Assembly: GCA_963666055.2 (NCBI GenBank)
Contig: CAXWPH010000007.1
Location: forward strand, 1-64,000
Origin: Acidobacteriota bacterium
Lineage (GTDB): Bacteria > Acidobacteriota > UBA890 > WLXD01
Direction of reading: 5' to 3'
Length of the DNA: 64,000 nucleotides
Shown: positions 2,618-53,840 of the stretch, one piece after another
Layout of the letters: every line of letters starts with the position of its first letter
Position numbering within the stretch: the first letter of the stretch is position 1
Position numbers and translations under genes: made by a program
Notes under the pieces: generated by a model
What the model saw: the letters and a program-made list of their open reading frames with translations, nothing else
The model's database searches: none
Told to the model about the DNA's origin: nothing

Positions 2618-2650
2618 GAGGAGTTGAAGCGTCTGGTCCCACCGGACCTG
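2618..2650 (+). repeat. Degenerate kinase-PD40 3'-tail repeat (EELKRLVPPD)
   Basis: gaggagttgaagcgtctggtcccaccggac resembles the copies at 6331, 12349, 12875, 17140, 41690 and 42920. Confidence 0.65.
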
Positions 2651-2803
2651 CGGCGTGTCGCCTTTCTCGGCGGAAGGCGACAGGGATAATCGGGGTTCTA
2701 GGCAGGTAGACAATCTGAAGCCGGAGAGGCGCAGCTTACCGTGGAACCTCGCACGCTCGGGCGATAGTCTTCAGGCGCTCACCTACCCTGTTTCGGGAGC
2801 GCC

Positions 2804-2845
2804 ATGGAACCCGGCACCAAACTAGGCCACTACGAGATCCTCTCG
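2804..2845 (+). pseudogene. 5'-head remnant of Ser/Thr kinase (MEPGTKLGHYEILS)
   Basis: GGAG RBS plus ATG and the kinase N-terminal motif; cut off at the 107-bp repeat. Confidence 0.7.
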
Positions 2846-2850
2846 AGGTT

Positions 2851-2957
2851 TAGTCAAGAGGTGTGGAAATAGATTCAGGCAGCATTGCTTGCCGAGTGCT
2901 CCCAGTCGGCACAGGTATACGCCAATTGGATTTTCTTGGCCGACGCTAGGTTCCTTG
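2851..2957. repeat. 107-bp dispersed repeat, copy 1 (IS-end-like)
   Basis: tagtcaagaggtgtggaaatagattcaggcagcattgcttgccgag...aggttccttg also occurs at 8749-8855, with a partial copy at 12203-12255. Confidence 0.85.
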
Positions 2958-3016
2958 CTCGGAGCTATCGGGGTCGTTAGGGTTTCGCCCGAACAAGGTG
3001 AACGTGGACGACCGCT

Positions 3017-6000
3017 TTATTGGCCGGAACTTGTAAGCGCTTTTCGCTGCAGCTCCTCCGGATCGAACACCCAACCGCCTTTGATCACCCGCCAGATGGT
3101 CTGCGTGTTCTTGATGTCTTCCAGGGGGTTGGCGTCGAGCAGCACGATGTCGGCGAGCTTGCCGACCTCCAGCGTGCCGAGGTGTTCTTCCGCACCAACG
3201 GCCGCCGCTCCCTCCTGGGTGGCGATACGAAGCACCTCAAGTGGCGCCAGCCCGGCCTGGACAAGATGTTCCAGCTCCCAGTGCAGCTGCACCGGCCCCA
3301 GGGGTGTGACGTGGCCGCCCGCCAGGAGCCTGACACCGCGGCGATGCGCGGCGCGAATGCTCGCAAGCGTTTCCACCCAATACCCCCGTGCCGCCACTGC
3401 CCTGTTCATATCTCCACTAGTTACCCCTTCCCGGCGGATGCGCCACTCCGGGGTAAAAGCCCGAAACTTGGTGCCCGCCAGGCGTTCGGGCTCATCGCGG
3501 AGCAACAAGCCGAGGCCGTATCTGGTCGCCACCGTGGGGTCCCAGCGGGTGCCGGCCAGCGCCAGCATCTGGAGCACGTCGTCAGAGGGGGGTGGGGAAA
3601 GCGTGTGCTCGAGGCTCGCATACCCCAGGGTTACGCTCTTGGTAACTCGTTCTAGATAGTCGCTGTGGCCTACCACAGGTAACCCCAGCCGGCGAGCTTC
3701 CTCGGCCACCGCACGCTGCAACTGCCACGAAAGGGGTGGATAGACCTTGATGAAGTGCGCCCCACGCTGCTTCCACCGGCGCACATAGGTTCGGGCGTCC
3801 TCCTTGTTGCGAATGTCCAACCTAGTCCCGCGGCCCGCGCCAAAGATCCCACCCGAGAAGAAGTGGCGGGGCACGGGGTCGCTAGTAGCCTCGCCACGGT
3901 CCGCCAAAGCGTTCAGCCAGGTGAACCTGCCGCCGACGTCGCGCACCGAGGTGACGCCATAGGCCAGGAAGGCCTCCTGGTTGGCTGCAAAAAAGTTGGT
4001 GGTGCTGTGGCCGTGCATATCCAATAGCCCGGGAATGGCGAAGCGGCCACCCGCATCGACCGTGACGGTCTGGCGCGGCGGCAGCCGCCCACGTTCGGAG
4101 CCAGTCCAGCGGATGCGCCCCTGCTCGATGAAGAGAGAAGTCTCTGGACCAAAGGCACCAGTGTCGAAATCGAGCACCCGTACCCGCCGCACCAGCAGCG
4201 GTGGCGGCGTCGGGCGGGCCAGTTCCAACCGGATCGGTATCTCCTCCCGCTCACTACCTGCCAGCGGGTGTAGCCAGACGCGGTTGCCGGCAGCATAGAT
4301 TACCGCCGAGGAGTCCGGCGTGAACGCGAAACTGAAGTCCCCTTCCGGGCTGAGCTGGCGGAAATCTTCCTCTGGAACCGGGTCTTTGTTCAGCCCTGAA
4401 CCATCCGGTGCAGGCCCCAGCGACGCCACCCAGATTTCTGTGTCGCGCCGGAAGGCCACCCATTTCCCATCGGGGGAGACGTGTGCGCCGGCGTTGCGGG
4501 TCGGCAGTTGAGCGACCGCCTCCGGCTCGGCCTCCCCGTTGAGCGGCAACCGATAGAGCGTCTGGGTACCTGTGAGATCAGCGGAGAAGTAGAGCGACTG
4601 GCCATCAGGGGAGAAATCCAGGCGTGATGGCGACCGCGCGCCGAGCTCAGGGAGTTTCTCCTTTTTGCCGTCGCTGACGTTCACGGCCACCACGCGGTAG
4701 CGGCCGGGGTCATTCACCGCAAAGACCAGGCGCTGCCCGTCGGGACTCCAGCTGAGGCCCGTATTAGTCAGCCCAGAAGCCAGCGTACGCATCTGCCGAT
4801 TTTCAAAGTCGAATACCCGAACTTCTTCCTTGCCATACGCGCCGTGTACAAACGCCAGCTGCCGCCCATCCGGGGAAAACGCCGGGGCCCGCTCGAACGC
4901 GCTGCCTTCAAACAGCCGCTCGGCCTCGCCGCCATCGAGGGGTTGTTGCCAGAGATAGTCGGCTGCCCCAAACACCAGGCTTCGCCCGTCCGGCGACAGC
5001 CTGGGCGACAGCACGGTGCGCGGCGGAGCCGAGCTGCCAAGCGCGGCCGGAGTCCATGTAGGTGGCGGCGTCGGGGCCTGAACTTCCAGCCTGACGCGGG
5101 CGCGGAAGGCGAGGTGTTGGCGGCGCCCACTGGGCAGTTCAATCTTCCAGAGTCGCCCGTCCTGGCCGAGGTAGAGGCTCTTGTTGTCGGCGGCCACGGC
5201 GAACTGCGGCTCATTGAAATAGAAGCGGTGCGACAAGAGGATAATTTGTCGCGCGGCGCCCTCGGGGAGTGGCACGAACAACAGGTTTTTCGCCTCCGAA
5301 ATCGGTTCCTCCGGCTAACCCTGGCTCGCGGTGGCGCCAGTAGAGCCCATCACCCGCGGGACTTGGCACCGCCCGATCCGCGTAGCCGCTCATCGTGCGC
5401 ACGGTAGACACCACTCCCTCCGGGCTCATGACCTCAATCCGCGTCGTATGGGGCGAACTAGGTCCCTCACGCTCGACCATCGTCCAGGCCAAGCGTCCAT
5501 CTTGCAGGTAGAACACCGAGCGGAACAGCCGCGCTGGAGCACTGAGGGTTTCCGGCTCTCCCCCGTCCAGGGAAACCCGGCGCACCAGAGCGGGTGACAG
5601 ATTTGTCGAGCCACCCGGCGCACCCGTGAAGGGCAGATAGACGATCGCCTGGCCATCCGGAGTCCAGGTCAGTCGGATGGATTGCGCATGAGATTTGCGC
5701 GTGACCTGCGTAATCCGGCTGGTCGCCAGCTCCAGCACAAACACGTTGTCCTCGCCGCCGTCCCGATCGGAGACGAAGGCCACCTGTGTGCCATCGGGGG
5801 AGAAGGCGGGATCGCTAGCGTAGTAGGGCCCGAACGTGAGCTGTTCGGCGGTACCACCCTCGACCGGCAATCGGAACAGGTGCCCCAGCATGGTGAAGAT
5901 CAGCCACTGGCCGTCGGGTGAGAGCGCGATATGTGGCTGGGTGACCTCGGTGGTTTCGAACTCGATGGTGCGTGTTGCCGCCGGGCTGACGTTGCGGACC

Positions 6001-6107
6001 TCGAGGGGACCGGCGAGGGCATCACGACTGGAGGGCGACGCCATGCCGCCGGTGGCCGGGACCAACGCGAGAGACAGTAGCGTTACTGCGCTCAGCCGGT
6101 GTCTCAT
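3017..6107 (-). pseudogene. Secreted PD40-repeat amidohydrolase, frameshifted near 5281-5315
   Basis: ORFs 5211-6107 (signal peptide, SPDG repeats) and 3017-5281 (PGLLDMHGH, GTLEVGKLAD) join as one gene. Confidence 0.8.
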
Positions 6108-6330
6108 GGGAGCAGCCTCCTTTTTGACCGGATAGGGTGCTGCCAATGTTCTAAGTCCCAGCCAGGCGCACAAGAGAGAACCTGGAAGATCCTATCCTCA
6201 GCTGCTGCGATCTTGCTGAGCGGTTTTCTGTTGGGGCAGACCCGTCAGCCTGTCCGCCCCGGAGTGGGTGCCACTTATTAGCGCTTCTAATCGGTTCTGA
6301 CAAGGGGCTGCTGGAGCGGCCGCAATTACG

Positions 6331-6387
6331 ACACTCGTCATCAACTGGTTCGAGGAGCTGAAGCGGCTCGTGCCGACGGACCCGTAG
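6331..6387 (+). repeat. Kinase-PD40 3'-tail repeat (TLVINWFEELKRLVPTDP*)
   Basis: Isolated intergenic tail with no upstream gene body. Confidence 0.9.
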
Positions 6388-6998
6388 CTTCGTCTGCCGC
6401 CAGCACGCCGCCCGGATGCTCGGCTCGCATCTCCTATTCCTTGTCTGCGGCTTCAAGCTCGCTCTTGGTCGCATCGAGCGTGTCGTCGGAGAGCACCGAC
6501 AGGTCGAAACGTCTCGCCTCAACCTCGATCCGGACGGCTTTCTTCGGCCCGCACCCAGATCGATCCAGCACTAGCGCCGATATGTTCAGACGGGAAGGGT
6601 GACCCCGATGGTGCGTGAACCGCGGGGTGTTGTCATCTCAGGCGGGCACGCGTTATCCCCGGAGGACTGGAAGCCGGTAGTCCCGTGGAACCCCACGAAC
6701 GATCCAGTCGTGGTCACGCAGCTCGACGACGCGCTGCGAGTCACACTAACGGACGGCACGAGGAATCCTCGCGGCTATCCAAGGGGCGGCCTCGTTCGAC
6801 GAAGTGGCCCGATTCGCGGGCCCTGGGGGTAGGCTGGTAGCGGGGGGAGGCGCTTGCTGGCGGCCTGGCGCAGACCCGGCACCCGGAAGTCCCGCCTAGC
6901 AGGGTCCCCCAGCCGCAGGGTCGACAACGTAACGAGGTCACTCCAATGAGAATCTCTTTAAAAATGGAAATCCCAGTTATATCTCGGGAGGTTTCGAC

Positions 6999-8648
6999 AT
7001 GACTCTTTCTGTCCTCGTCGGCTCCGTCGGCGCTCGCCCGCGGCCGCCGGGGCGCGTCGCTCACTGGCGCGTCGCGCTCACCGTCGCGCTCGGGCTGTGG
7101 CTCTCTCCCACGGCGTCGGCGCAGACGCTCGACGTCACGGCGGCCACCATCGAAGAGCTCAACCAGGCGTTCGATGCCGGCACCCTCACCTCGGAGCAAC
7201 TCGTCGAACGCTATCTTGCCCGCATCGAGGCGTACGACCAGACCGGACCGACGCTCAACGCCGTCATCACTTTGAATCCCAGGGCGCTGGAGCGGGCGCG
7301 CGCGCTCGATGCCGAGCGGCAGATCCGGGGTCCCCGCTCCCCGGTGCACGGCATCCCGCTGGTCTTGAAGGACAACATCGACACGGCAGACCTCCCGACC
7401 ACGGCTGGCTCCATCATGCTGAAGGGGTCGATGCCCCCGGACGACGCCTTCATCGTGGAGAAGCTGCGTGACGCCGGGGCGATTGTGCTCGCGAAGGTCA
7501 ACTTGGGCGAGTTCGCGACTGGCATACGGAGCTCGCTCGGTGGGCTGACGCGCAACCCCCACGACCCCGCGCGCTCCCCCGCGGGGTCGTCCGCCGGGAC
7601 CGGGGCCGCCATCGCCGCGGCCTACGCGCAGTTCGGGCTCGGTACGGATACCGGCGGCTCGCTGCGCGGTCCCTCGACGGCCAACGGCATCGTCGGGCTC
7701 AAACCGACCCACGGCCTGATGAGCCGTGATGGCATCATCCCGAACGCGCTCTCGTTCGACACGGCCGGTCCGATGGCACGAAGCGTCTACGATGTCGCGG
7801 CCGCGCTCGGCGTGATGACCGGGATCGATGCCGCCGACGACGCCACGCGGAAGAGCGAGGGACGGTTCGACACGGACTACACGCAGTACCTCGACGCCAG
7901 CGCGCTGGAGGGCGCGCGCATCGGCATCGCACGCGATTTTCTCGGGCAGGATGGCGAGGTCGACTGGATCATCGAAGCGTCACTGGAAGTCATGCGCGGC
8001 GCCGGTGCGACAGTCGTCGACGTCCGCTTCCCGCAGTGGCTGCTCGAGGTGAGCAACCGTTTCTGGGACACGGTTTTTCGTCGGGAGTTTCGCGCCCAGC
8101 TTCCCGACTATCTCGCCACGCTGGCGCCCGGCTTTCCGAAGACCCTTGCCGATCTCGTCGAGCAGTCGGTGCGACTGACGGCGCCGAGGGATGGCGGCTG
8201 GCCGAACCCGAGGCGGTGGCGGCGGATACAACGCGTGGAAGAAAGGGGTGAGCTCTTCGATTCCGAGTATCGCGCCCTCCAGGAGTATGGCTTGCCGCTG
8301 GTGCGGGCGATCATCGAGGGCCTGTTCGAGACGGAGAACCTGGACGCGATCGTCTATCCGACCCGGTCCCGCCGTCCGCCGCGGATCGATGCCGATCCCA
8401 ATCCGTTCGGGGCCGCTCGACCCTATGCGGCGGCCGGCTACGCCAACCTGACCGGGTTCCCGGACCTCGTCGTGCCGGCCGGCTTCACCTCGAACGGGCT
8501 CCCGGTGGGGATATCGTTCCTCGGCCAGGCGTTCAGCGAGCCCCGGCTCCTCGCGCTCGGCTACGCGTTCGAGCAGGTGACGAAGGTCCGCCGGCTGCCG
8601 GTCAACACGCCGGTGCTGACGGCCGAGGCGATCCGTTCGCTGAAGTGA
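6999..8648 (+). CDS. Secreted amidase-signature family protein
   Basis: KDNIDT, AGSSAGTG and GTDTGGSLRGPS motifs; GGAGG RBS. Confidence 0.92.
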   Translation: MTLSVLVGSVGARPRPPGRVAHWRVALTVALGLWLSPTASAQTLDVTAATIEELNQAFDAGTLTSEQLVERYLARIEAYDQTGPTLNAVITLNPRALERARALDAERQIRGPRSPVHGIPLVLKDNIDTADLPTTAGSIMLKGSMPPDDAFIVEKLRDAGAIVLAKVNLGEFATGIRSSLGGLTRNPHDPARSPAGSSAGTGAAIAAAYAQFGLGTDTGGSLRGPSTANGIVGLKPTHGLMSRDGIIPNALSFDTAGPMARSVYDVAAALGVMTGIDAADDATRKSEGRFDTDYTQYLDASALEGARIGIARDFLGQDGEVDWIIEASLEVMRGAGATVVDVRFPQWLLEVSNRFWDTVFRREFRAQLPDYLATLAPGFPKTLADLVEQSVRLTAPRDGGWPNPRRWRRIQRVEERGELFDSEYRALQEYGLPLVRAIIEGLFETENLDAIVYPTRSRRPPRIDADPNPFGAARPYAAAGYANLTGFPDLVVPAGFTSNGLPVGISFLGQAFSEPRLLALGYAFEQVTKVRRLPVNTPVLTAEAIRSLK

Positions 8649-8748
8649 GTCGAGGTGTTCAGACAATAGCCCGTGGTTCAAGGCATTAGGGTCCTCGCCC
8701 ATCCAGATTGTCCCCGAAACTGTCCCTTATCGACCTTGGAACGAGGGG

Positions 8749-8855
8749 TAGTCAAGAGGTGTGGAAATAGATTCAGGCAGCATTGCTTGCCGAGCGATCC
8801 CATTCGTCACAGGTATGCGCCAGTTGGAGTTTCTTAGGCGACGATAGGTTCCTTG
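8749..8855. repeat. 107-bp dispersed repeat, copy 2
   Basis: Matches 2851-2957. Confidence 0.85.
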
Positions 8856-8963
8856 GACGCTGCAAGCAGGATAGAGAGTCGATGCGTACTCATCGTTCGC
8901 CTCCGCGAGGGATTGAGGGCCACGCCAGATCTTGGCACCTGCGACGCGTCCATCCCTAACGTG

Positions 8964-11210
8964 TCACGGCTTCAGGTGCTCCTGGAAGTAGCGGCGAATG
9001 GCTTCCTGCATGTATCTGAAACTGACAGGCGTCCACTTAGAAGTAGCGTGGGGCTGCTCGGGAAACACCAGCAGGTCGTAAGGTCTGCCCGCCCGGATGA
9101 ACGCCTCCACCATCTTCATGCTCTCCGCGAAACTAGGGCCGTTGATGTCGCTGGTGCCGATTATCAGGAGCAGCTTGCCTTTGAGGTTACCCGCCACCCG
9201 GAGGTTGGAGGAGTACTCGTACCCTTGTTTATTGTTTTGGGGCAGGCCCATCTTGCTCTCCGCCCATACCTGACTGGACGGGGAACCTGCAATACCGACG
9301 TGATACACATCGGAGGCCAGCAACATGGCGCGGAGCGTATTAGTACCGCCTCGGGAGTAGCCGTAGATACCCACCCGGCTCAGATCCATATAGGGGCGGT
9401 TTGCCCCCAACTGCTTGAGTGTAGCCACGTGGTCGGGAATCTCGCGGCCGACGTTTCCATAGAACACGTCTAGCGCCGCTTTACCCAGGTGGCCGTCCAC
9501 GATGAATGTAATGAAGCCCAACTGTGCGAGCGCCTGCGCCTGTACAACCATCCAGTAGCGGGCCGTGAAGGTGCGCTGCACATGTCTACTGTCCGCGCCA
9601 CCATAGATGTACTCGATCACCGGGTACCTTTTGTCGGGGTCGAAATCGTAGGGTTTGTAGAGCACCCCGTAGAGGTCGGTCTGCCCATCGGCGGCCTTGA
9701 CCACGAACTCTTCCGGTGGACTCCACTTGAGCTCCTCCCGAAGCGCGTCAATGTTGGCTTGGGACAGGGTTTGTAGCAGCGTGCCATCCGCGCGCCGGAA
9801 CTCCACCGTCGGCGGCCGGTCCACGCTGGAGTGCGTGTCCAGGAAGAACTCCCTTGAGGGCGCAAGGTCGACGGCGTGTTGGCCGCTCGCTTCGGTCAGC
9901 CGTGTGAAGTTTTTGCCCTCCAGGTTCACCCGGTAGAGGTGGGTGTCGTAGGGCCGTTGCTGATCACCTTGAGCAATGAAATAAACCCAGCCGACCTGCT
10001 CGTCCACAGCGATCACCCGGACGACAGGGAAGGCTCCTTCTGTCAATCGCTGGATCAGCGTCCCGTCCAGGTCGTAGAGGTAGAAGTGCCTCCACCCATC
10101 CCTTTCTGACATCCAGATAAATCTTTTCCCATCGCCCAGCAGTGTGAAGCGGGGTGTTCGGACCCAAGTGTTCTCGGTTTCGGTGAGGACGAGACGGGAG
10201 GAGCCAGTGGCGCCATCGGCGGCCATCAGGTCGTACTTTTTGAACTCGCGGTCTCTTCGGAGGAAAAGCAACTCAGAACCATCGGGCCGCCACCCGAGGA
10301 TATCAATGAACTGGTCCGGCTCCTCCCCGATGTCCACATGTACCTGGCGCTTGGAGAGGATATCCACGATGAAGAGTTCGGTCTGGTATGTGGGGCCGCC
10401 GTTCCGCGAGGCGCGTGGGGGGTAGTGTTCCCATTCCACCTCCTCCACCGGTTTCAACCAGTGAACGACAAGGGTCTTGGGAACGTTGCGCCAGTCCTCC
10501 TTCTTTAAGGCCAGCTTGAAGCCGTCCGGCGACCACCAGGCCCATCGTTGGTTGTATCCGCCCCACTTGTAGTCTTCGATGCCGTCGGTGGTCAGCTGCA
10601 CGCTGCGGCCGTCGTAGGTGGAACGCAGCCAGAGGTTGTACTCCTTGAGGCCGGCAAACCAGCGGCCGTCAGGAGAGAGCACCTCCATCAGGTCGGGCGC
10701 GCTCCGGGGAAAGACCTTCCAGACGATCTGTGGGACCAGCCGGCTTTTCTCCGCCTCGGCCAGCGGAGGGATTGGAGTGATCTTGTAGTTGTCGAGCTGG
10801 AGGATAAATTCCTTGTCCTCCACGGTGAACTTGACGGCCTGCTCGCCCTCGTCCAGGAAAGTGAATCGGTCGAAGGGCAGTCCCTGGTAAGGTGCCTCGT
10901 GCCTCAGCAATGGCGTGAGCGCCAGGCGCAGACGGGCGGTGTCGAACAGGGGTGTCTTGGTGTTGGCCCTGGGATCAACCTTGTAGATGACGATGCTGGC
11001 CGGAGCCCCCTCGGCGTACCAGAAGCTGCTGCCGTCGGCCATCCAGTGGGGCTCAATGGAGCCGCCTCTGACGTAGGAGGCAAACTCCATGTAACGGTAG
11101 TACATCGCCTCCCGCTCGGATTGCTCGGCTTCCTGAGCGCGAACCAGCGAGCCGCTAACCACTAAAACGACGACCAGAAAACCAAGCAGTGCCAATTTTG
11201 AGCTAGACAT
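8964..11210 (-). CDS. Dipeptidyl peptidase IV-like S9 family peptidase
   Basis: Signal peptide, DPPIV_N propeller, GYSRGG nucleophile motif, C-terminal Asp/His. Confidence 0.9.
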   Translation of the reverse strand: MSSSKLALLGFLVVVLVVSGSLVRAQEAEQSEREAMYYRYMEFASYVRGGSIEPHWMADGSSFWYAEGAPASIVIYKVDPRANTKTPLFDTARLRLALTPLLRHEAPYQGLPFDRFTFLDEGEQAVKFTVEDKEFILQLDNYKITPIPPLAEAEKSRLVPQIVWKVFPRSAPDLMEVLSPDGRWFAGLKEYNLWLRSTYDGRSVQLTTDGIEDYKWGGYNQRWAWWSPDGFKLALKKEDWRNVPKTLVVHWLKPVEEVEWEHYPPRASRNGGPTYQTELFIVDILSKRQVHVDIGEEPDQFIDILGWRPDGSELLFLRRDREFKKYDLMAADGATGSSRLVLTETENTWVRTPRFTLLGDGKRFIWMSERDGWRHFYLYDLDGTLIQRLTEGAFPVVRVIAVDEQVGWVYFIAQGDQQRPYDTHLYRVNLEGKNFTRLTEASGQHAVDLAPSREFFLDTHSSVDRPPTVEFRRADGTLLQTLSQANIDALREELKWSPPEEFVVKAADGQTDLYGVLYKPYDFDPDKRYPVIEYIYGGADSRHVQRTFTARYWMVVQAQALAQLGFITFIVDGHLGKAALDVFYGNVGREIPDHVATLKQLGANRPYMDLSRVGIYGYSRGGTNTLRAMLLASDVYHVGIAGSPSSQVWAESKMGLPQNNKQGYEYSSNLRVAGNLKGKLLLIIGTSDINGPSFAESMKMVEAFIRAGRPYDLLVFPEQPHATSKWTPVSFRYMQEAIRRYFQEHLKP

Positions 11211-11359
11211 TCTTGCCTCCGTTTTGCTGCTGCTGCCTACAGAAGGCAGCTTCCGATTGGCAATCCCTACTACAGGTACACCTCGCCCATACCGCCAGCG
11301 CCTAGCTGCTCTATGATCTTGTCGTAGTCATTGTCTTGGGGTAGCGGGTATTAGCCAGA

Positions 11360-11986
11360 TCACTGCAGCCCCAATGCGGCAATGACCCCGTTGAGGACCA
11401 CCGAGAGGACAACAGCGGCAATGCTCAGCGGCACCAAGGCTCCAACCGAGATGAGTCCTTTCCGCCACGGACTCCACTCACGGTGACGCACGATCAGAAT
11501 CCAGGCGAGCGGCGCTAAGCACATGAGCACGAACCAGCCGACAAAATTGAGCAGGGGGATGCCGTAGTAGACCGTGCCTTCCACAAACCAGACCCAGTAG
11601 CCGGAAGCGACGGCCGGGTCAATGAACAGATCCATCGCCACAGCAATGACGCCGGTTAGCACCGGCACCTGCCACCACAGCCGAGGCTGGGTGAGCATAT
11701 CCTGGCCGGGACGGGCGAGGATGCCCTCGGCGACGAACAAACAGGTGCCACACATCCCGATCCACCCGAACAGAATAAAGGTGAACACCCACAGCATTGA
11801 CTGGCCCGGATACTCATAGTTGCGCACGACAAACGATGAGATCAGATCCATGATGGCCGTGAACCCGCCAGAGACGATGATAAAGACGAATGTGTCCGCT
11901 CCACCAAACCGCCACCACACAAAGGCCAACACGGGGAGAGCAAACAGAATGCCGCCCAGCAGGACCATGGTGAAATCGGGTGTCAT
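11360..11986 (-). CDS. DUF422/CruF-like carotenoid biosynthesis membrane protein
   Basis: DLFIDP...GYWVW...YYGIPLLNFVGW motif and multiple TM helices; ATG overlaps the upstream TGA. Confidence 0.7.
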   Translation of the reverse strand: MTPDFTMVLLGGILFALPVLAFVWWRFGGADTFVFIIVSGGFTAIMDLISSFVVRNYEYPGQSMLWVFTFILFGWIGMCGTCLFVAEGILARPGQDMLTQPRLWWQVPVLTGVIAVAMDLFIDPAVASGYWVWFVEGTVYYGIPLLNFVGWFVLMCLAPLAWILIVRHREWSPWRKGLISVGALVPLSIAAVVLSVVLNGVIAALGLQ

Positions 11987-12177
11987 GCCACTGTCCTGTG
12001 GGACCGCCACAGATACAGTCCCAACGCGGGCACCGCGAAGAGCGCTAGCCAGAGCAGATCCCCGCGCCCTGCCTCGGTGGCCGTGATGATCCAGAGGAGA
12101 AGGTTGACGGAATACAACGCCACCGGCACCCGCCGGCCGAGAAGCGTTTCCCGCTTGCTGGCATGATCGTCATGCAT
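11983..12177 (-). CDS. Small 2-TM membrane protein
   Basis: Hydrophobic ORF, ATGA-coupled to the DUF422 gene. Confidence 0.5.
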   Translation of the reverse strand: MHDDHASKRETLLGRRVPVALYSVNLLLWIITATEAGRGDLLWLALFAVPALGLYLWRSHRTVA

Positions 12178-12323: not shown

Positions 12324-12394
12324 GGCTCGCGAGACTCGGCTAGGAACGCTACGGGTCCGTCGGCACGAGCCGCTTCAGCTCGTCGAACCAGTTG
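12324..12394 (-). repeat. Kinase-PD40 3'-tail repeat with downstream flank, inverted copy
   Basis: Reverse complement reads NWFDELKRLVPTDP* then cgttcctagccgagtctcgcgagcc, matching 12875-12944. Confidence 0.9.
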
Positions 12395-12514
12395 AAGTGA
12401 CCGAGGGAGGTGCCGGTCATCTGCGAGTGTCCGTGGAGCCGTTCGTTAGGAGAGCTTGCGGCTACGCCGCGGTCGCCATCGTGACCATCGCGATCGGGTA
12501 CCGCGACCCAGCGC

Positions 12515-12919
12515 GAGCCACGGTTCTCTCCCGACGGCCGTTACCTGCTCTATTCGTCGGACGAGACAGGAGATACGGAAGTGTTCGTTCGACGCTATCC
12601 AGGCCCGGGCGGTGCAGAGCAGATCTCAAACGAGGGCGGTTACGACGCGCTCTGGTCACCGGACGGTACGGAGATCTTCTACCGGAACGGGCGTCGGATC
12701 ATGGTGGTCGATGTCCAGACGGATGGCAACATCAAGGTCGGTAGACCGAGGCTACTTTTCGACGGGCCCAACCTCGGCAACGCCAAGTTCTATCGGGCCT
12801 GGGACGTCATGCCCGATGGTCAGCGTTTCATCGCCGTGGAGCGGGCTCCCGTATCGACCTTGAACGTGATTCTCAACTGGTTCGACGAGCTGAAGCGGCT
12901 CGTGCCGACGGACCCGTAG
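12515..12919 (+). pseudogene. C-terminal fragment of kinase-PD40 family protein
   Basis: FSPDGRYLLYSSDETG...WSPDG...LNWFDELKRLVPTDP*; no 5' part. Confidence 0.8.
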
Positions 12920-13070
12920 CGCGCTTAGCAGAGTCTTGCGAGCCTGCTTGGAGTGCGCTTTTCTCAGGGTGCCACCCTAGGTGCCACTCTATGCAACTCC
13001 CGGCACTTGCACAGAGTTGCATGGCCCGTAAACGTTGGGGTTATTGGGGTTACGGAAGGCCCCAATAAAA

Positions 13071-13113
13071 CTCATAACCCGAAGGTCGTAGGTTCGAATC
13101 CTACCCCCGCTAC
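13071..13113 (+). mobile_element. att-like 3' half of tRNA-fMet(CAT)
   Basis: CTCATAACCCGAAGGTCGTAGGTTCGAATCCTACCCCCGCTAC with no 5' half; preceded by a tandem ggtgccac pair at about 12968-12988. Confidence 0.85.
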
Positions 13114-13170: not shown

Positions 13171-13579
13171 CTGCATCTGGCCGAAATGCCACGTACATGC
13201 CGCGATTCGGCTCCTCTCGGGAACGGGCCTCGCAGTCTCGACGCTCCCTGCTTCACGGGAAGCGCCAGCGTCATTCATTCGTACAGGGACCTGCCGATGG
13301 ATCGGTAGCGTCGTAGCTCAGTCTCACGAAACGGCATCGTCCGTGGACCCTCACCCGCCCTGACGGTACGCTTCAGGCGCTCACCCTCCCTGCTTCGCCG
13401 CGCTCCAATCCGCGAACAGATGCGGCTCACGCACGTCTACCAACCAGTGATCCTGCGAGCACTCATCAAGTGCAGCGACGTGGTCGCTCAACGACGTCGC
13501 CGACGCGGTCGGCTGTCGATGTCGTCAGTGATCGTCAAGACACTTCCATTGTGTGCACATCTGCCTCGCGACCGACGCG

Positions 13580-18810: not shown

Positions 18811-18884
<74 letters not shown>

Positions 18885-41042: not shown

Positions 41043-41192
41043 GCCCCCTCCATTTGAGTCCTTCCGTAACTCCTCCGTAACTATGGCCGGTAGACTCGCC
41101 TGGACTCGAATGGCCACCGACAGCTTAATTCATTGTATCAAAAGGGATTCCAGAGTCCAATAGAGTCCAGTGAAGTCCAGCTTGCCCCACTT

Positions 41193-41410
<218 letters not shown>

Positions 41411-41689: not shown

Positions 41690-41800
41690 CGGCTCGCGCC
41701 GACGGACCCGTAGCGGGGTCAGCCGAGCCCTCGCGAACCCAGCCGCGTGAACGCTACTCCCAAGCTTGGGTAGCACTCGTTACCCGTCTACGAGCGCAAA
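41690..41800 (+). repeat. Kinase tail (RLAPTDP*) with cttgggtagcact flank
   Basis: Imperfect direct repeat of 42954-42976 plus 45545-45650. Confidence 0.75.
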
Positions 41801-42705: not shown

Positions 42706-42919
42706 GGCCGGACCTCCCCAGGTTGATAGCGGCACATGCTGAGGCTCCAGCGGACGCACGCACAACTCCATGAGAGCGACACGCGATTGCCGGTTTGAGT
42801 GCCGCGAGCGTCAGTATACGACCCACGAGCACAACCTATCCGTGTCTACGGAGCACTAGAGAGAAAGCCGTAAAGAACTGTCAAGCGGCGCGGGCGATAA
42901 CGGCCAAAGCGACAGCGAC

Positions 42920-42976
42920 CACGTGACGCTGGTCACGGGTTCGACGAGCTGAAGCGGCTCGTGCCGACGGACCCGT
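42920..42976 (+). repeat. Kinase tail repeat (FDELKRLVPTDP) interrupted by IS21
   Basis: The sequence resumes after 45544. Confidence 0.85.
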
Positions 42977-43118
42977 TGGTAGCGGCAGACTGAAAAGGGA
43001 CCCTGCGGCGGGTTGAAAAGGGACCCCCTGGTGACCGATGGACTGGGCCCCGCTGGTGGGGTACCGAGACGGAAGCAGAAGCCGTATCGGATACGCCGAT
43101 CCAGGAGGACCCGAGGAG

Positions 43119-44580
43119 GTGATCAGAGTGTCTCAGTGGGCCGAGATCCGCCACATGCACGTCGTAGATGGAATCGCCAAGAAGGAGATAGCGCGACGGC
43201 TGGAGGTAAACATCAAGACGGTGCGTCGGGCGCTGGACAAAGACGAGCCGCCGCTTGAGCGTGCCACGCCCCGGCGAGGTCGGCGGCTAGATGCGTGGCG
43301 GGAGCAGATCGAGGGCTGGTTGAAGGCCGATCCACGGATCAGTGCGAAGCGGATCGGGCGTTTGCTGATGCCGATGGCGGGAGCGGTTCCGGGACGGACG
43401 GTGAGGGAGTACGTGGCGGAGTCGCGTGGCGAGCTGTATCCGAAGGAAGCGTACGTGCATCGGAGCCAGGCGCCGGGGCAGACGATGGAGGTGGACTTCG
43501 GTGAGACGTGGGCGCTGATGGAGCGACGGCCCCGGAAGCTGAAGTTCTTCGTGGCGACACTGCCGTATAGCAACGTGTACTTCGCCAAGGCGTACGCGCT
43601 CGAGAGGCTGGAGTGCCTGCTGGACGGGATACAGAAGGCGTTCGAGTACTTCGGCGGGGTGACGGGGCGGGTGGTGTTGGACAACACGTCGCTGGCGGTG
43701 AAGCGGGTGCTCCGGGGTCGAGATCGGGAACAGACGGATGCCTTCAACGGCTTCCGTGGGTCGTATCCGTTCGCGGCGGAGTTCTGCGCGCCGGGCAAGG
43801 GTGGAGGGCGGCGTGAAGTACGTGCGCAACAACGTGTTCCGCCCGATGCCAAGTATCGACAGCTTCGAGCAGCTCAACGAGCTGATGGTGCAGGAGCTCG
43901 AGGCGGATCTGGACAACCGCCGGTTAGCGGATGGCCGCACGGTCAGAGAAGCGTGGCAAGCGGAGCGCCAGCATCTGCGTGCGCTACCGCCGCATCCGCC
44001 GGCAAGCTGCCGGACACTGGCCCGGGTGGTGGACAAGTTCGGGCACGTACGGGTGGACGGGGCGCACTACTCGGTGCCGATCCGACACGCCTACCGGCCA
44101 GCGTGGGTGAAGCTGTACCACGACCGCGTGGAGGTGGCGGTGGCCGATGAAGTGGTGGCCAAGCACGCCCGCTCGTTCCGACAGGGAGCCAAGGTGCTGG
44201 AGCCGCTACACGTGCTGCCGTTGCTTCAGCGCAAGCACCGGGCGGTGGGTGAGGCGACGGCGCTGCGGGGCTGGGAGCTGCCCGAGGCGTTCCGTGAGCT
44301 CAGAAGGAAACTGCATCAGTGCACCCGCAAGCCGGACCGGGAATGGGTGAAGGTGCTGCGGCTGTTGGAGGAGCACGAGCAGCCCGAGGTGGAAGCCGCG
44401 GTCCAGGATGCGTTACGTAGCGGATCGCCCCGCTACGAGACCGTGCGCTTGTTGCTACGTCGAGCCGAGCAGGCGGGTATGCCCGAGGTACGCCCCGTGC
44501 CGGTACGCGCTGAGTTGGCGGCGATGGAGGTAGCGGAGCCGGTGCTCGAAGCGTACGACGTGCTCTGGAGGACAAGCTGA
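43119..44580 (+). pseudogene. istA: IS21 transposase, frameshift/deletion near 43800
   Basis: EVDFG, VLDN and APGKG|VEGGV motifs. Confidence 0.9.
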
Positions 44581-45365
44581 TGGCGGTGGCCAAGATCCAA
44601 GAACCGCCGCATCTGGTGGAGGATCTGCGGACCCTGTACCTGACGAGCATGGTCTCGCAGTGGCGAACGGTGACCGAGCAGGCGCGCCGCCAGCGGCAGC
44701 CTTATGCGGAGTACCTGGCCGATCTGGCGAGGCTCGAGGTGACCGGCCGGCGGGAGCGACGCATCCAGCGCCGCATCAAGGAGGCACGCTTCCCGATGCT
44801 CAAGACGCTGGATGCCTTCCGGTTCGAGGCGCAGCCAACGCTGGACCGTGACGAGGTGCTGGAGTTGTTCCGCTGCGAGTGGGTCGGAGAGGCGGCCAAC
44901 GTGGTGTTCGTCGGCTCCGTCGGTACCGGCAAGACGCACCTGGCGATCGCCCTCGGGATGGCCTGCTGCCAGCAGGACTACCGGGTGAAGTTCACCACCG
45001 CTGCCGAGCTCACCAACTTGCTCGTGGAGGCCAAGCAGGACGGGCGGCTCTCCAGAAAGCTCGAGCAGATGGCGCGTTACGACGTGGTCATCCTCGATGA
45101 GCTCGGCTACGTGCCGTTCGACAAGCAAGGAGCCGATCTGCTGTTCGGCTTCATCACCCGGGTGTACGAGCGCCGCTCGGTGGTGGTCACTACGAACCTG
45201 CCGTTCGCCAAGTGGTCCGAAGTGTTCTTGGATGCCACGGCGGCCGCTGCAGTGATCGACCGGATCGTGCACCACGCTACCGTGCTCAAGACCGAAGGCA
45301 ACAGCTACCGACTCAAGGCCGCCAAGGACAAGCGCCGCGGCCAACGCCGAAAGGGAGGACGATAA
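44580..45365 (+). CDS. istB: IS21 helper ATPase
   Basis: GSVGTGKTH, ILDELGY and IDRIVHH motifs. Confidence 0.95.
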   Translation: MAVAKIQEPPHLVEDLRTLYLTSMVSQWRTVTEQARRQRQPYAEYLADLARLEVTGRRERRIQRRIKEARFPMLKTLDAFRFEAQPTLDRDEVLELFRCEWVGEAANVVFVGSVGTGKTHLAIALGMACCQQDYRVKFTTAAELTNLLVEAKQDGRLSRKLEQMARYDVVILDELGYVPFDKQGADLLFGFITRVYERRSVVVTTNLPFAKWSEVFLDATAAAAVIDRIVHHATVLKTEGNSYRLKAAKDKRRGQRRKGGR

Positions 45366-45766
45366 CGCTGCAGGACCCCGCGGCCGTGGAAACTGCCGTG
45401 TCCGTGGAAACCGCAACGCGGTTCCCACCGCCACTTGGAGGACGCTCCGCGTACTCCACAGTTCGCACCGCTTCTACGACTACATAGGGGGTCCCTTTTT
45501 AACCCGCCGCAAAGGTCCCTTTACGACTTGCCATTACCACCCGTAGCGGCGTCAGCCGACCCGTCCGAATCAGGCGCCAACCGGGATCGCTGCGTCCCGA
45601 TCTTGGGTAGCACTTTGGGTAGCACTCGGTACCGACTATGGGTGCAAACGAGTACAAACGTGTCACCTAGTGCGAGAGCCAACAAACCCTACGATACAAG
45701 GGCGAAACGGCTATTCCGTGTCGTCATCGGGGGTTACGGCAAGGGGTCGGAACCGGGCGCATGCTC

Positions 45767-46341: not shown

Positions 46342-46417
46342 CTGGCAGTTGAACCGGCGCGCTGCCAGCAGGTAGGTTTGCGGTGATGTGTGAGGTGCCC
46401 TTGGGCGCAGGAGATCT

Positions 46418-48687
46418 TTGGTGAAAGAGCGTGAGCACGCAATTCGGTTCTTCGGCTTCGTCCTGGCGTTGACCGTCACCGGGCTACCGGTTGCGAGTGC
46501 CGGCGCGGTGGCCGGCGCGAGCTGGAGTGCGGCGTCTTTCGTAATGCTGGCTCAGGAGGCGCTGCCGGCGCAGATGCCGACGTTTCGGTCCGCGGTTACG
46601 CGCGTGCGTGTCGACGCCATCGTTGCCGACAAGGACGGCAACTTCATCGACGACTTGAAGGCGGACGACTTCCGGGTCTTCGAGGATGGGGTCGAGCAGG
46701 AGATCTTGAACGTCCAGTTCGTCAGCCTGACAAGAGGACAGGTCACCAACGTGGCCTCTCACGACGAAACGGTCACGGCGCGCGAGGAATCGCTCGCTGT
46801 GCCGGCGGAGCCCACACCCATCCGGCGAAGCCCTGCAAGTCTCGGGGCTGTTGTCTATCTCGTCGACCTGCCGAGCCTGGATCGAAGGAACAAGCAACGG
46901 CTAACCAGGACTCTCGAGAGTTTGTTCGAAGGGGAGGGTGACCTGCAGGTGCCGCGCAGCATGTTCATGATCGATAGCACGGGCACTGTTCGGGAGATGG
47001 CCCCGTTGACGACCGATCGTGAAGTGCTTCGCGATGCGGCGGCGTCGGTGACGGCGGAAGGGCTGACGAGCACGTCTATTTTCGCCCGCATGGAGCAGGA
47101 GTATCAGCCGATCATGCAGGTGGCGATCGACGCGGCGAATTCGCCGTCAGCGGGGGGAACCCCGACGATTTGAACCCGATCATGGTGCGCCAGATTCTCG
47201 AGAACCTCGATCGAAAGGCCGAGGTAGATGGCGAGCTCCAGCGTCTGCGCGGCGAGCAGACGCTTCGGACACTTCTTTACTTCACCAACGCCTTGTCGGC
47301 AATGGAGGGCCGTACTGCCCTCGTGTGGATCTCCTCCGGTGCGATGATCACCAAGGGGGGACCCTACTCGGCTTTCTCAGCAGCGGTGCGTGAGGCGGTC
47401 GACGCTCCGATGGGAACTTCGACTCTGGACGGGTTGGAACTCAGCCAGCCCATCCTCGACTTGATGGAGGAGGTGTTCGAAACCGCGAACACGGGCAACG
47501 TGAGCATTTACACGGTCGATCCGCGCCCGACCTCGGAGCTCAACAGCCTCGGCAAGAGTGCCACCGTCGGCAGCGGCGTGCTTTCCAGAGCCATGCGACG
47601 CTATGTGCGGCAAGCCTATCGCGATCTCACCATACCGCTCGTGGACCTGGCGGCCAAAACTGGCGGCCGGGCGTTCATCGGCTGGAGCGATCTCGACCGA
47701 GCGTTCGAAGAGCAGTACAACGACTCGACGCGATTCTACTTGATCTTCTATGAGCCACCGGCGCCACACGAGGATGGCGAGTACCACGAGATCGAGGTGC
47801 AGGTGAGCTACCCGGAGGCGGAGGTGCGAGCCCGCGCAGGCTATCGAGAGCTGCCGGATTCGGAGCTCAGGGCTCGCAAGTTCGCCGCAGCCTTGGCGCT
47901 ACCGGGCTCAGTTATGGGACGCCCGGTGCCCGCCGCCGCGTTCCACCGCTTTGAGCCCGACGGCGCGCCCAAGATCCTACTGGTTGCCGGGTTACCGCGG
48001 CCCGCAGAGACGATCACCGGTAGCTGGGCGCCCGCGTTCGGGGGAGTCGATCCCGCCGAGGATATCCCCGAGGAGCTGATCGACGTGCTCGGCATCCCGT
48101 ACTTCCTCGTGCATGCCATCGTGTTGGATCGTGCGGGCGAGATCAGCGGCGAGACTCACTCGTTGGTTCGGCCACGCGCCGATCTGGCCGAGTACGCACC
48201 CGGTGCTGCGTTCCGACACTTCCGGTACACGACGGAGTGGTCAGTCGAGCCGGGAACCTACGATATCCGGCTGCTGATCGCTGAAGGCGGCGGCGACCGA
48301 TTCGGCACGTCGAGGCTACAGGTGCAGGTTCCGTCAAGCGACGGGTGGACGATGGCGGATCCGATGCTCGGCATTCTGGACGCCGATGCCTCGTTCAGAC
48401 CCGTGGTAGACCAGGACATATCCGAGGGCATCCCGATCGCCGCGAGCGTTCAGGTCAGCGACGCGACGGACCCCTACGTTTCTGCTTCGATCTTCCATCG
48501 CGCCACGCGACGTACCATCGTCGAAGTGCCGGCCCATCCATTGCGGCCCGAGGGTCCGGGCGTATACGGCGGGGTTCTGCCGCTGCCGTATCTCGCCCCC
48601 GGCGAGTACGTGGTCGAGCTGCAAGTAGCGGATACGACCGCCGAGGCGGTCCGGCTGATGCCGCTGCGCGTGGTGGAAGGCCACTAG
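46418..48687 (+). pseudogene. Acidobacterial-type VWA domain protein, frameshift near 47150-47170
   Basis: PTFRS..VRVDAIV.DKDG..DLKADDF.VFEDG; LAAKTGGRA; Y.I.Y.P...DG.YH.I.V...VRAR.GY. Confidence 0.85.
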
Positions 48688-48779
48688 CCGGGCGAACTGC
48701 CCGCCGGAGATGAACCGGGGCGGACTCGTCGGTGGCTCACGGCGCAGCGGAATTCCGCGTCGCGCAGGACTCGGGTGAC

Positions 48780-48910: not shown

Positions 48911-48977
48911 GGCGAATGGCGCATCGCACGGGAGATCTAGAACCGCGCACCCGACGAGGAATAGGCGGCGAGAACAG

Positions 48978-49030
48978 GACGAGACCGGGCAATACGAGGT
49001 GTATGTGCGGGAGGTATCGAGCGGACGGAC
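48978..49030 (+). repeat. Internal shard of the kinase-PD40 family (DETGQYEVYVREVSSGRT)
   Basis: Matches 16801-16853. Confidence 0.75.
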
Positions 49031-49050
49031 CGGTAGCGTCGTTAGCCAGC

Positions 49051-50743: not shown

Positions 50744-50757
50744 AACTTGACAGTACC
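50744..50757. mobile_element. Solo IS6-type inverted repeat
   Basis: AACTTGACAGTACC, identical to 18541-18554. Confidence 0.6.
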
Positions 50758-50835
50758 CATCAAGGTGCTGCCTGCCGAACTTGCCTCTGACCCGGAGCAC
50801 CTCGCTCGCTTCTCCGAAGGGGCACGGCGCCGATC

Positions 50836-52473: not shown

Positions 52474-52488
52474 CCTCTAACTCATTCT

Positions 52489-52767
52489 CTAGCAGGCCGT
52501 GGTGAAAGTGTGGTGGGTCTGGTTGCGGCGAGTTGGGGCCAGATGGAAGGCGGCCTGACACAGGCGATGCCCTAGCCATCGTCGAGGAAGGCCAACGCCA
52601 CAGATGGCCCCAAATCGCCGTAACCCTTCGGGCGATAGGGGGTTGCGCGCGTATGCTGCGTCGTTCCTCGTCAACGATGGGGTAACCATCGCCTCCTCCT
52701 CTCTCCTTGCCTCCACTTCGCAAGTCCCTGTCGCCAGACCCACCACACTTTCACCACGGCCTGCTAG
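52489..52767. mobile_element. 279-bp MITE copy 2
   Basis: Near-identical to 49051-49329, same orientation. Confidence 0.9.
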
Positions 52768-53210
52768 GTCACCTTATCGAGCCGCGGAACGCCGCTGCGC
52801 GGCGATGACATGTAGTAGAAGAACTTGCCCGGTGAGCTCCCGGTGTTCTTCACTTTGTACTTCCAGCCCGTGGGATAATATGCGCAGTCGCCCTCTTTGA
52901 GCTCGTAGAATTCGTCCAGATTGGCGGCGTCTTTTCCCCACCAAACCGTAAACTCGCCATACAGGATGTAGTAGAACTCGTCACAGGCGCCATAGTGGTG
53001 CGGCGCCGTTCCATCGTCTTCTTCTTCGAGTGCGAATACGCACGTTTCATCACCCGGTTCCATGTAACAGACACCGAGGCGGCCCACGTTCTCCACCTCG
53101 AAGAGTTTCTTGATGGGAACGGAGATGTAGTGGCTGGCGTCGTGGCCGGGCCCCACCATCTTCACGTCGCCTTCCCTCACGACCTGCGGCTTGACTTCAC
53201 TTTCGGTCAT
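52764..53210 (-). CDS. Cupin domain protein
   Basis: HHYGACDEFYYILYG...LKEGDCAYYP; stop codon lies in the MITE CTAG. Confidence 0.8.
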   Translation of the reverse strand: MTESEVKPQVVREGDVKMVGPGHDASHYISVPIKKLFEVENVGRLGVCYMEPGDETCVFALEEEDDGTAPHHYGACDEFYYILYGEFTVWWGKDAANLDEFYELKEGDCAYYPTGWKYKVKNTGSSPGKFFYYMSSPRSGVPRLDKVT

Positions 53211-53584
53211 GGCGTTGGCTCCTCTGCGGGCCCGATGATTGCGGTATCTGACCTGACGAAGACCTCGGCGGCAGGCTGTTCCCAACCCTGCCAGCGGATC
53301 TCTTCGGTTTGATGGCAAGTGCCTTGGGTTTGCTGATAGCAACCCCGCTCACCCAGGGTGTCGACCCGCCATGGCCGCTACGCGATGCAGAGGGCAACGT
53401 CGTGCCGTTGCATGATCGGCTCGGGATTCTCAACCCGTTTGCTCGTGCCGCACCGCAGAAACGCTGAAGGTGCGCTCACCGAGCCCCCCTGGTTGCGCCA
53501 TGGAAACCGGCACGCGAATAGGGCTCCTACGATCCTCGTCCCCGGTCGCACTATGACGGCTGGGCGGCGCAATACAACGACGAC

Positions 53585-53692
53585 TTGCTCAACGATTACG
53601 GCTACACCGCCCACAAGATCGCATCGGTCGCTTTCGCTCACATCGTCGCGGATAGGCAAAGCCGGATCATCGACGTCGGCTGCGGTACCGGT
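53585..53692 (+). pseudogene. SAM methyltransferase fragment
   Basis: DYGY...IIDVGCGTG motif I. Confidence 0.55.
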
Positions 53693-53802
53693 CGACCGGC
53701 CCGGCAAACTCATCATCGCCCGCCGCAGCGGCTAGAGTGGAAGCGGACACCCTATGACACAGGCAGATATCGCCCGCGCCTAGCGCCGCCCACGGGCGAT
53801 CA

Positions 53803-53840
53803 ATGATCGGTAAGATGCTCGGCGCGCCGCCACTACCAGA
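53803..53840 (+). repeat. Degenerate kinase head remnant
   Basis: atgatcggtaagatgctcggc...cactac resembles 17187. Confidence 0.5.

Follow-up and report, generated by a model that had tools for sequence, protein, structure and literature searches.

Results

The window is the whole stretch of DNA that we analysed, 64,000 nucleotides of a contig from an Acidobacteriota bacterium. It contains recurrent ends of a family of Ser/Thr kinase–propeller (sensor-kinase) genes, lying among other genes, insertion sequences and tRNA fragments. We refer to the last 48 bp of these genes as the tail, to the roughly 110 bp at their start as the head, and to either end as an anchor. The studied genome (G000) was compared with a same-genus genome (G002) and with two others (G003 and G004). 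The features, in order, are:

749-2569: unrelated PD40 gene, about 40 bp before the solo tail at 2618
2618..2648, plus strand: degenerate solo tail
2739..2845, plus: head unit, with a promoter-like conserved leader (2739-2803), then the first kinase codons, then a break
3017..6173, minus: cargo, PD40-amidohydrolase in two overlapping ORFs, between the head stub and a tail stub
6331..6388, plus: solo tail
6999..12010: cargo block of amidase (plus), S9/DPP IV peptidase (minus) and carotenoid-biosynthesis protein (minus)
11273-11325, minus: head-derived fragment inside this cargo block
12324..12395, minus: solo tail and its 3' flank, in the opposite orientation to the other tails
12467..12944, plus: family gene reduced to its 3' part, including tail and flank
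13071..13113, plus: 3' fragment of tRNA-Met, an att-like remnant 150 bp past the tail
13299..13397, plus: eroded tail and flank, then a head leader without start codon
13580..16257, minus: kinase-PD40 gene spread over three ORFs, a divergent and distant relative without the family ends
16334..17255, plus: 3' part of a family gene, joined through TGATG to a 68-bp head stub
17748..41231: mobile-element zone with IS6- and IS3-type elements, tRNA-Lys/Glu, two tyrosine integrases, and fragments of tRNA-Leu and tRNA-Glu
41687..41740, plus: solo tail, 5'-truncated, with flank; left end of a block shared with G002
41878..42771, minus: cargo, protein with collagen repeats and a likely signal peptide
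42890..42976, plus: short remnant with tail, where the block shared with G002 has its right end
42977..45539, plus: IS21-family element within the tail, with a 5-bp target duplication (42972-42976 / 45540-45544)
45540..45570, plus: remainder of the split tail, comprising the stop codon and flank
46342..48701, plus: cargo, VWA-domain gene with copies on contigs C2 (98%), C14 (90%) and C10 (86%)
48977..49050, plus: internally deleted remnant, a propeller fragment fused to the tail end; then a CTAG MITE
50753..50812, plus: internal kinase fragment adjoining a 125-bp inverted-repeat element
53803..53840, plus: degenerate head stub; synteny with G002, G003 and G004 breaks within the 470-bp interval that contains it

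All seven tails listed in the preliminary description were recovered, at 2618, 6341, 12395-12348 (minus strand), 12873, 17138, 41687 and 42935; the first is degenerate and that at 41687 is 5'-truncated. Measured from the tail end, family sequence extends for 58 bp (6388), 54 bp (12348), 423 bp (12920), 876 bp (17185), 20 bp (41714) and 89 bp (42979), and by these lengths five tails, 2618 included, have essentially no gene body, as had been proposed. The shared non-coding flank is common to 12349, 12875, 41690 and 45540, the last being the far half of the 42935 tail. Among the three reported heads, those at 2804 and 17187 are clear, the latter with its TGATG overlap with the tail, but that at 53803 is degenerate, with about 20 nt. 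Four remnants had been missed earlier, at about 11273-11325 (head, minus), about 13299-13397, 48977-49050 and 50753-50812.

The statement that unrelated cargo lies between the ends does not apply at 17.7-41.3 kb, which is mostly IS, tRNA and integrase DNA; this zone consists of mobile elements and is not cargo bounded by anchors. The cargo proteins are predicted to be mostly secreted, judging by eye from their N-terminal sequences. The remnant at 12467..12944 shares ~260 bp of downstream sequence with C15:481070, where the upstream side is different, and the IS21 element is single-copy in the genome except for about 100 bp. A public sequencing run of a separate study matches 41372-42967 and 42947-45796 with 0 differences, and runs X1-X7 suggest that the species is a recurrent one.

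Three side observations concern the window. The PD40-amidohydrolase gene has an apparent frameshift, either real or an assembly error. The joint of the remnant at 48977..49050 shows, by eye, 7 bp of microhomology. C10 was considered as an alternative haplotype of the window and rejected: a 521-bp tRNA cluster, a single cargo gene and repeats are common to both, but the arrangement is not.

Gene ends recur throughout the genome

Mapping of the family ends by blastn and tblastn confirmed that their recurrence is real and genome-wide, with 94 tail copies, 33 of them without a gene body, and about 90 heads. The 48-nt tail used as a query gave 98 genome matches at E<=1e-3; the reversed string, a control for chance, gave 0. 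Remnants shorter than 150 bp do not sample the gene evenly and favour its ends (40 tail-only, 29 head-only, 1 with both, 19 internal), in a search biased toward well-conserved stubs. Thirty clusters hold at least 3 anchors, and of 61 pairs of adjacent tails 49 have the same orientation. Where two co-oriented anchors enclose cargo, the intervals are head-head (27), head-tail (20), tail-tail (17) and, in only 9 cases, tail-head; cargo therefore seldom occupies an old intergenic slot. The cargo is a single gene in most head-tail (14/20) and tail-tail (12/17) intervals. Cargo orientation is about random: 30/52 genes downstream of short tail remnants and 30/53 upstream are co-oriented with them, so that cassette-like co-orientation is absent. 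Heads start sharply at a promoter-like -35/-10 pair, and a sigma-70 scan of the head leader gave no call. The genome carries ComEC and DprA, as do 10 of 14 control genomes.

The conservation of these ends extends to the DNA level. Synonymous identity, scored as the same codon given the same residue in the 80 of 91 paralog pairs with divergent propellers, was 0.76 in the tail and 0.70 in the head, compared with 0.42 in the propeller and an expectation of about 0.4. Homogenisation in the kinase catalytic motifs equals that of the tail. Solo and gene-attached tails lie equally near the majority sequence (median 1 mismatch in 24 nt), with zero mismatches in 14/35 solo and 7/16 attached tails. By pairwise identity, paralogs are mosaics: a kinase identity of 0.93 occurs with propeller values of 0.47/0.44, and one of 0.61 with 0.84/0.82. 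A unit of head stub, gene and tail (907 bp) is 93-99% identical between C6 and C14, where upstream paralogs are 48-96% identical, and just beyond the tail identity drops to 57%. Five tails are three-way mosaics: the copy that shares their left flank is not the one that shares their right flank.

Shared blocks often end at tails

Cargo is not syntenic in the related genomes; with the end-biased remnants and the excess synonymous identity of the tails, this means that none of the three outcomes named beforehand as refuting the preliminary reading occurred. The tail–gene–tail block at 41692-42979 is 97% identical in G002, where it lies, tail to tail, at a different chromosomal locus. When a G002 block overlapped a G000 tail, the chain ended within 35 bp of the tail in 8/10 cases, compared with 17/60 gene 3' ends before long spacers (p=0.003), in a sample of n=10 from one genome pair, at loci chosen mostly for their tails and with two blocks contributing two ends each. 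As a second comparison, chain ends fell in 346 of 2005 overlapping non-coding windows. The G004 comparison carries no weight, with 2/2 tails at block ends over a background of 35%. The G002 block ends support that part of the preliminary description which saw the tails as recombination anchors, but not its portrayal of them as att-like targets on a cassette platform.

Shared tails account for only 8/155 chain ends in the G002 comparison. Neighbours were kept across 2/17 anchor spacers and 10/38 long island spacers (p=0.30), or 17/55 spacers when distant ones were added (p=0.21), so anchor spacers are not significantly more often broken. Among 132 non-collinear block ends, family sequence was present in both genomes at 14 and in one at 24, another repeat at 19, and none at 75, where "none" means that neither genome has family sequence there and that the G002 side lacks any other repeat. 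These 75 breaks share no convincing 4-6-mer (CTAG, 19 vs 9 expected). Enrichment of family sequence at block ends on the G000 side was small, 21% vs 12.8%. Heads seldom mark shared breaks: of 20 informative cases 2 did so, and in 15 the head was in G002 only. Most long island spacers differ between the two close genomes at breaks that carry no repeat, and the stubs do not account for this.

Two earlier counts were set aside. An initial synteny control (1/21 tails collinear vs 61/145 gene ends, p=0.0005) was dropped because its controls held short operon junctions and the tails at loci L023 and L025, scored as broken, are collinear on inspection. A pair count (both flanks shared in 1/36 pairs) had the same flaw and used non-independent pairs.

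No fixed recombination site was seen at the tails

Integrons are marked by an intact integrase, an attI site with a cassette promoter, attC sites with a bottom-strand hairpin after the cassettes, and co-oriented single-gene units. The arrays here resemble them in that a short repeat, starting near a stop codon, separates units of one gene each; unlike integrons, they show no intact IntI, no attC pattern at tails in the regions scanned, no fixed crossover and no co-orientation, and their repeat derives from coding sequence. No match in the genome exceeded the TIGR02249 cut-off for an integron integrase, the best being a stop-containing C-terminal fragment on C10. A crude scan for the attC pattern (RYYYAAC...GTTRRRY) over the window and C10:30-70 kb found none at tails and one weak site within a gene.

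Identity between flank-sharing copies stops at various points, some before the tail and others as far as 32 bp beyond it, and the junctions, as far as near-identical tails allow them to be resolved, spread over tail and flank with no fixed crossover base. MITE- or REP-type fixed ends are likewise not seen: the 5' ends are ragged, and flank positions are mostly 33-62% conserved. No consistent fold was common to 7 tail-plus-flank sequences. Circle junctions were sought in assembled contigs, which drop rare forms; a joint that "goes back 1247" (runs X8 and X15) was rejected as a circle junction, its letters fitting a longer upstream tail of the G002 allele.

Discussion

We favour, with somewhat better than even confidence, a reading in which the homogenised paralog ends serve as short homology arms through which ordinary, non-site-specific recombination moves single genes between islands. 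Likely no dedicated gene-capture machine is at work, and ordinary homologous recombination takes its place. Protein constraint would first keep the ends similar, with recombination between copies then homogenising their DNA. Illegitimate joints could next set foreign genes beside a head or tail stub, replacing the gene body. Crossovers in head, tail or flank might then copy stub-bounded units among co-oriented arrays, whether inside one genome or with incoming DNA. Dead body sequence would decay, while each exchange would renew the stub. The 48-bp tail is longer than the RecA threshold of roughly 30 bp quoted in PMC2884548. At the level of sequence, the stub/cargo junctions are compatible with homology-facilitated illegitimate recombination, in assemblies that do not reveal single events. 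End-mediated exchange is one of several turnover routes and accounts for a minority of breakpoints; the islands are very fluid and are also reshuffled by transposons, MITEs and integrases.

A bolder version, which we regard as possible but doubtful, is that any intact kinase–propeller gene body in the ~30 islands can be replaced by a stub-flanked gene through a double crossover. Cargo would then retain its stubs because stub-flanked genes spread better, and, no less tentatively, the whole might amount to an integrase-free cassette system born of a signalling gene family. Among the 40 loci examined, none came to notice at which one genome has an intact family gene and another a stub-cargo-stub arrangement between the same outer flanks. 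A rival explanation, which we consider unlikely, is passive debris: family genes decayed in islands reshuffled by other means, tail crossovers were incidental, and the ends persist because they abut or serve neighbours, as promoter or ribosome-binding region, and are easiest to detect. The near-equal breakage of long island spacers without anchors fits such decay. So do the promoter-like head starts, with a co-oriented gene downstream of 18/25 short heads (p=0.04), and the locus C15:1042741, whose neighbours are kept in three genomes around a remnant of variable length (G000, about 260 bp; G004, 26 bp) and where a gene likely starts ~10 nt past the tail. But internal deletion predicts joined head-tail stubs, and only 9 of these (<2 kb) exist beside 49 tail-only and 55 head-only ones; block ends within 35 bp of tails, three-way flank mosaics and undrifted solo tails would also go unexplained.

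Carriage of the cargo by transposons, MITEs and tRNA-targeting integrative elements, with stubs hitch-hiking at their edges, we think improbable as the main cause. The window does hold IS6, IS3 and IS21 elements, two integrases and att-like tRNA fragments, and in the 600 bp downstream of tails a tRNA gene or fragment occurs in 9/75 cases, compared with 1/75 upstream and 2.3% at random island positions. In G002 a CTAG site unoccupied in G000 holds an insert that runs from a MITE end to a tail, and other repeats mark the 19 block ends given above. However, neither the 41692-42979 block nor the 907-bp C6/C14 units have IS or MITE boundary ends, and arm-like direct repeats follow 17/75 tails vs 20% at random, no excess. 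Least probable, and already largely refuted, is the idea that the tail is the cryptic att core of a site-specific recombinase in an integron-like cassette system. By eye, the tail does contain apparent inverted arms of 6 bp separated by a 7-bp spacer, on which a single fold-back inversion at C2:361837 is centred, and the genome has about 20 tyrosine-recombinase matches. Yet the upstream junctions of solo tails are scattered, several deleting the left arm of the repeat, and the variable identity ends, equally homogenised kinase motifs, randomly oriented cargo and missing IntI, attC and common fold all count against it; the 75 repeat-free block ends further weaken the platform claim.

Recombination through short homology arms has its closest likeness in the Staphylococcus aureus lpl cluster on nuSa-alpha (Tsuru and Kobayashi 2008, PMC2568036). 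In the parts of that paper drawn on here, a DNA-conserved stretch within variable paralogs is the site of homologous crossover, yielding mosaic ORFs, deletions, substitutions and inter-genome translocations. The present family resembles it in a stretch conserved in DNA among divergent paralogs, in mosaic ORFs with incongruent halves, and in inter-genome rearrangements that stop in the conserved stretch (here 8/10, a small n). The lpl stretch, as described there, is central, and paralog halves are shuffled in one cluster, whereas here two terminal stretches outlive the gene, in 30 clusters, beside unrelated cargo that moves between loci. For effector-immunity arrays of the Vibrio cholerae T6SS, homology-facilitated illegitimate recombination has been proposed (Kirchberger et al. 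2017, PMC5361080): in the sections cited, a conserved anchor is combined with an illegitimate far end, the resident gene is partly displaced, remnants collect in a growing array, and the process is rare. By that account the T6SS anchor is upstream and the cargo of one functional class; here both gene ends persist, and the cargo comprises enzymes and exported proteins in either orientation. A 2017 study (PMC5635113, in the portion used) describes fast gene turnover focused in hotspots, with entry via homologous recombination. Those hotspots, on the same portion, have single-copy core genes as flanks; in our case the homology is an internal, multicopy paralog end of 50-110 bp, and the islands are rich in mobile elements. 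Like the present genome, that of the acidobacterium Ca. Solibacter usitatus has an expanded family of Ser/Thr kinases (PMC3174227); neither "gene conversion" nor "pseudogenes" occurs in the main text of that paper.

What would set the present case apart from lpl-type recombination is the carriage of foreign cargo between paralog ends. Assemblies and pangenomes of these Acidobacteriota call for caution, since they break or mis-join at ~50-bp coding stubs that annotation misses. If our reading is true, a repeat resembling a recombination site can emerge from the protein-coding ends of a gene family with no dedicated enzyme needed, and this would offer a testable route for the entry of genes into hotspots.

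Results

The source genome (5.73 Mb in 15 contigs, contig C7 beginning with the 64-kb window) contains 98 matches to the 48-nt tail that ends the Ser/Thr kinase-PD40 propeller genes, and none to the reversed string. Subtracting four in an inverted duplicate on contig C8 leaves 94 tails, 75 plain and 19 joined via TGATG to a following head, the ~110-bp 5′ end of the family. Heads comprise 66 of the MEPG type and 24 matches to the MIGK-type pattern, one of which is probably false. The 16 unbroken genes that we aligned (~900 residues) encode a kinase, a hydrophobic segment, a divergent PD40 propeller and a conserved C-terminal motif. A gene body of >1.5 kb is attached to 28 tails; some frameshifts may be assembly errors, given the few single-base gaps seen against short-read contigs. 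Of the 31 genomes searched, 19 had a tail match, among them all four others of the genus and none of the five from other orders. The C8 duplication (29538–42541 and 53958–66961; 13 kb, inverted, 99.9%) extends to the contig end and is possibly an assembly artefact; its second copy was excluded from anchor (head and tail) counts. The promoter-like leader of the head begins sharply at a TTGGAT/GTGGAC – 17–18 nt – TAGGCT-like pair (window 2739–2803, most of the 66 genome heads), and DNA upstream of it is unrelated from copy to copy.

In the window, the seven tails and three heads (2804, 17187, 53803) of the preliminary description are present, and we detected several further remnants. The nearest named records to its propeller remnant are Acidobacteriota MAGs at 75–79% identity. 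The tail at 42935 is interrupted by an IS21 insertion flanked by a 5-bp target duplication, and contigs from a second study match 41372–45796 with 0 differences. One third of the span of the described pattern, 17.7–41.3 kb, consists of IS, tRNA and integrase DNA. Other elements of the window are as follows.

49051–49329, 52489–52767, 59590–59983: CTAG-inserting 280-bp MITE, with many copies in the genome
50630–50752: second inverted-repeat element (125 bp), whose end motif reappears at several island breakpoints
18709–19229: tRNA-Lys/Glu/Thr-like cluster, a 99.6% duplicate of C10:20561–21081 on another contig in different surroundings; the Thr call lacks Rfam support and may be an att-rebuilt pseudo-tRNA
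45767–45805, 19891–19945, 28403–28455, 41190–41231: fragments of tRNA-Leu and tRNA-Glu, which mark where integrative elements have their att ends

Gene parts have survived unevenly. Loci covering the head number 104 and the tail 92, against 53 for the kinase interior, where leave-one-out detection was complete. Family sequence at the 94 tails measured ≤70 bp in 37, 71–300 bp in 20, 301–1500 bp in nine and longer in 28; a more sensitive profile found a body behind four of the 37 shortest, leaving 33 solo tails. Remnants under 150 bp were mostly ends (40 tail-only, 29 head-only, one with both), the 19 internal ones being a lower bound because detection is less sensitive for divergent propeller fragments.

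The proposed excess of DNA-level conservation in the tail held in that it goes beyond protein need; it is not unique to the tail. Same-codon rates among paralog pairs, which are not independent, were 0.76 for the tail, 0.70 for the head and 0.42 for the propeller, where codon bias predicts about 0.4, and reached 0.64–0.77 in windows covering kinase motifs. Solo tails have drifted no more than attached ones, and intact paralogs are mosaics combining different kinase and propeller types. Such a pattern is expected from recombination at any stretch of high identity rather than at a single special site.

An att-like role for the tails was not borne out. The first base of solo tails varies, with scattered positions, and identity between flank-sharing copies stops upstream of the tail, inside it, or ≤32 bp beyond. 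Anchors are co-oriented in 49 of 61 cases, cargo with anchors in only 30 of 52. As had been stated, no integron is evident: not one integron-integrase match exceeds the TIGR02249 cut-off, and a crude scan of the window and C10:30–70 kb revealed no attC pattern at tails. The lone integron-integrase fragment (C-terminal; C10:50422–50736) has an internal stop and adjoins a toxin-antitoxin-like gene pair; no attC was found near it. An apparent circle junction in two sequencing runs was rejected, as it equals the allele of the same-genus genome G002. At C2:361837–361875 lies a perfect fold-back inversion centred on a 6-bp inverted repeat within the tail.

We compared forty 20-kb loci from two same-genus genomes (G002 and G004) with the source genome, most picked for tails and six for window cargo; between them the loci contain 27 of the 29 tails among the pattern-search matches listed for G002. 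Cargo is not syntenic among relatives, and blocks of one or two genes make up mosaic islands. G002, G003 and G004 each have the window's right-hand cargo genes distributed over three distinct loci. The block between tails 41687 and 42976 has a 97% identical, tail-bounded copy at a different chromosomal place in G002, and a head-stub/gene/tail unit of ~1 kb, also found in G002, is 93–99% identical at two loci of the source genome that differ in their paralogs upstream and their flanks downstream. For five tails, the flank on one side is shared with one copy and that on the other side with a different copy. Cargo follows heads or precedes tails in 64 cases, against nine in an old tail-to-head gap, and is usually a single gene where counted. 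The blocks of the G002 and G004 islands (L011–L050) are mostly 85–99% identical to scattered places in the source genome.

In eight of the ten source-genome tails overlapped by a G002 block, the chain end lay ≤35 bp from the tail; the figure for comparable gene ends was 17 of 60 (p = 0.003). Tails account for eight of 155 chain ends. In this test G004 was too diverged to help. Family sequence lies near 21% of block ends (12.8% expected), while 75 of 132 non-collinear G002 block ends carry neither family sequence nor another repeat on the G002 side, nor any shared motif. Heads marked shared breaks in only two of 20 informative cases. Because the background is so fluid, anchor-bearing spacers were not significantly more broken than other long spacers (neighbours kept in 2/17 versus 10/38; p = 0.30).

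Discussion

On balance we favour homologous recombination on short homogenised ends as the likely mechanism. What the data show is the number of copies, their homogenisation, the bias of remnants toward ends, the mosaic paralogs and the blocks that stop at tails. Illegitimate joints would first have placed cargo beside stubs; crossovers within stubs would then shift stub-bounded units, and repeated exchange would stop solo stubs drifting. PMC2884548 quotes a threshold of ~30 bp for RecA-dependent recombination, and the tail is longer. ComEC and DprA, common genes generally, are found in the genome.

That the stubs are passive debris of a decayed family seems rather unlikely; it is favoured by one orthologous site, where neighbours persist while the remnant erodes toward the tail and a likely gene start lies ~10 nt further on. 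We think it improbable that mobile elements carry cargo and stubs together, though tRNA genes or fragments lie downstream of nine of 75 tails and one MITE-linked insert terminates in a tail. This G002 insert (L032:9839–13173), at a CTAG site empty in the source genome, comprises a MITE end, a stretch resembling a group II intron 3′ end, cargo and the tail. A cryptic att site in the tail is very improbable given the scattered junctions.

The proposed recombination between family ends resembles the working of the lpl cluster (PMC2568036) and the anchor model put forward for effector-immunity arrays in V. cholerae (PMC5361080), and the ends sit in hotspots like those that PMC5635113 describes. 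Unlike in those three systems, the homology here is both ends of a signalling gene, retained without the gene, and unrelated cargo is flanked in 30 clusters of at least three anchors. The open-access main texts searched yielded no description of this family's ends. What the cross-genome comparison newly adds is that tails are likely, though minor, crossover points.
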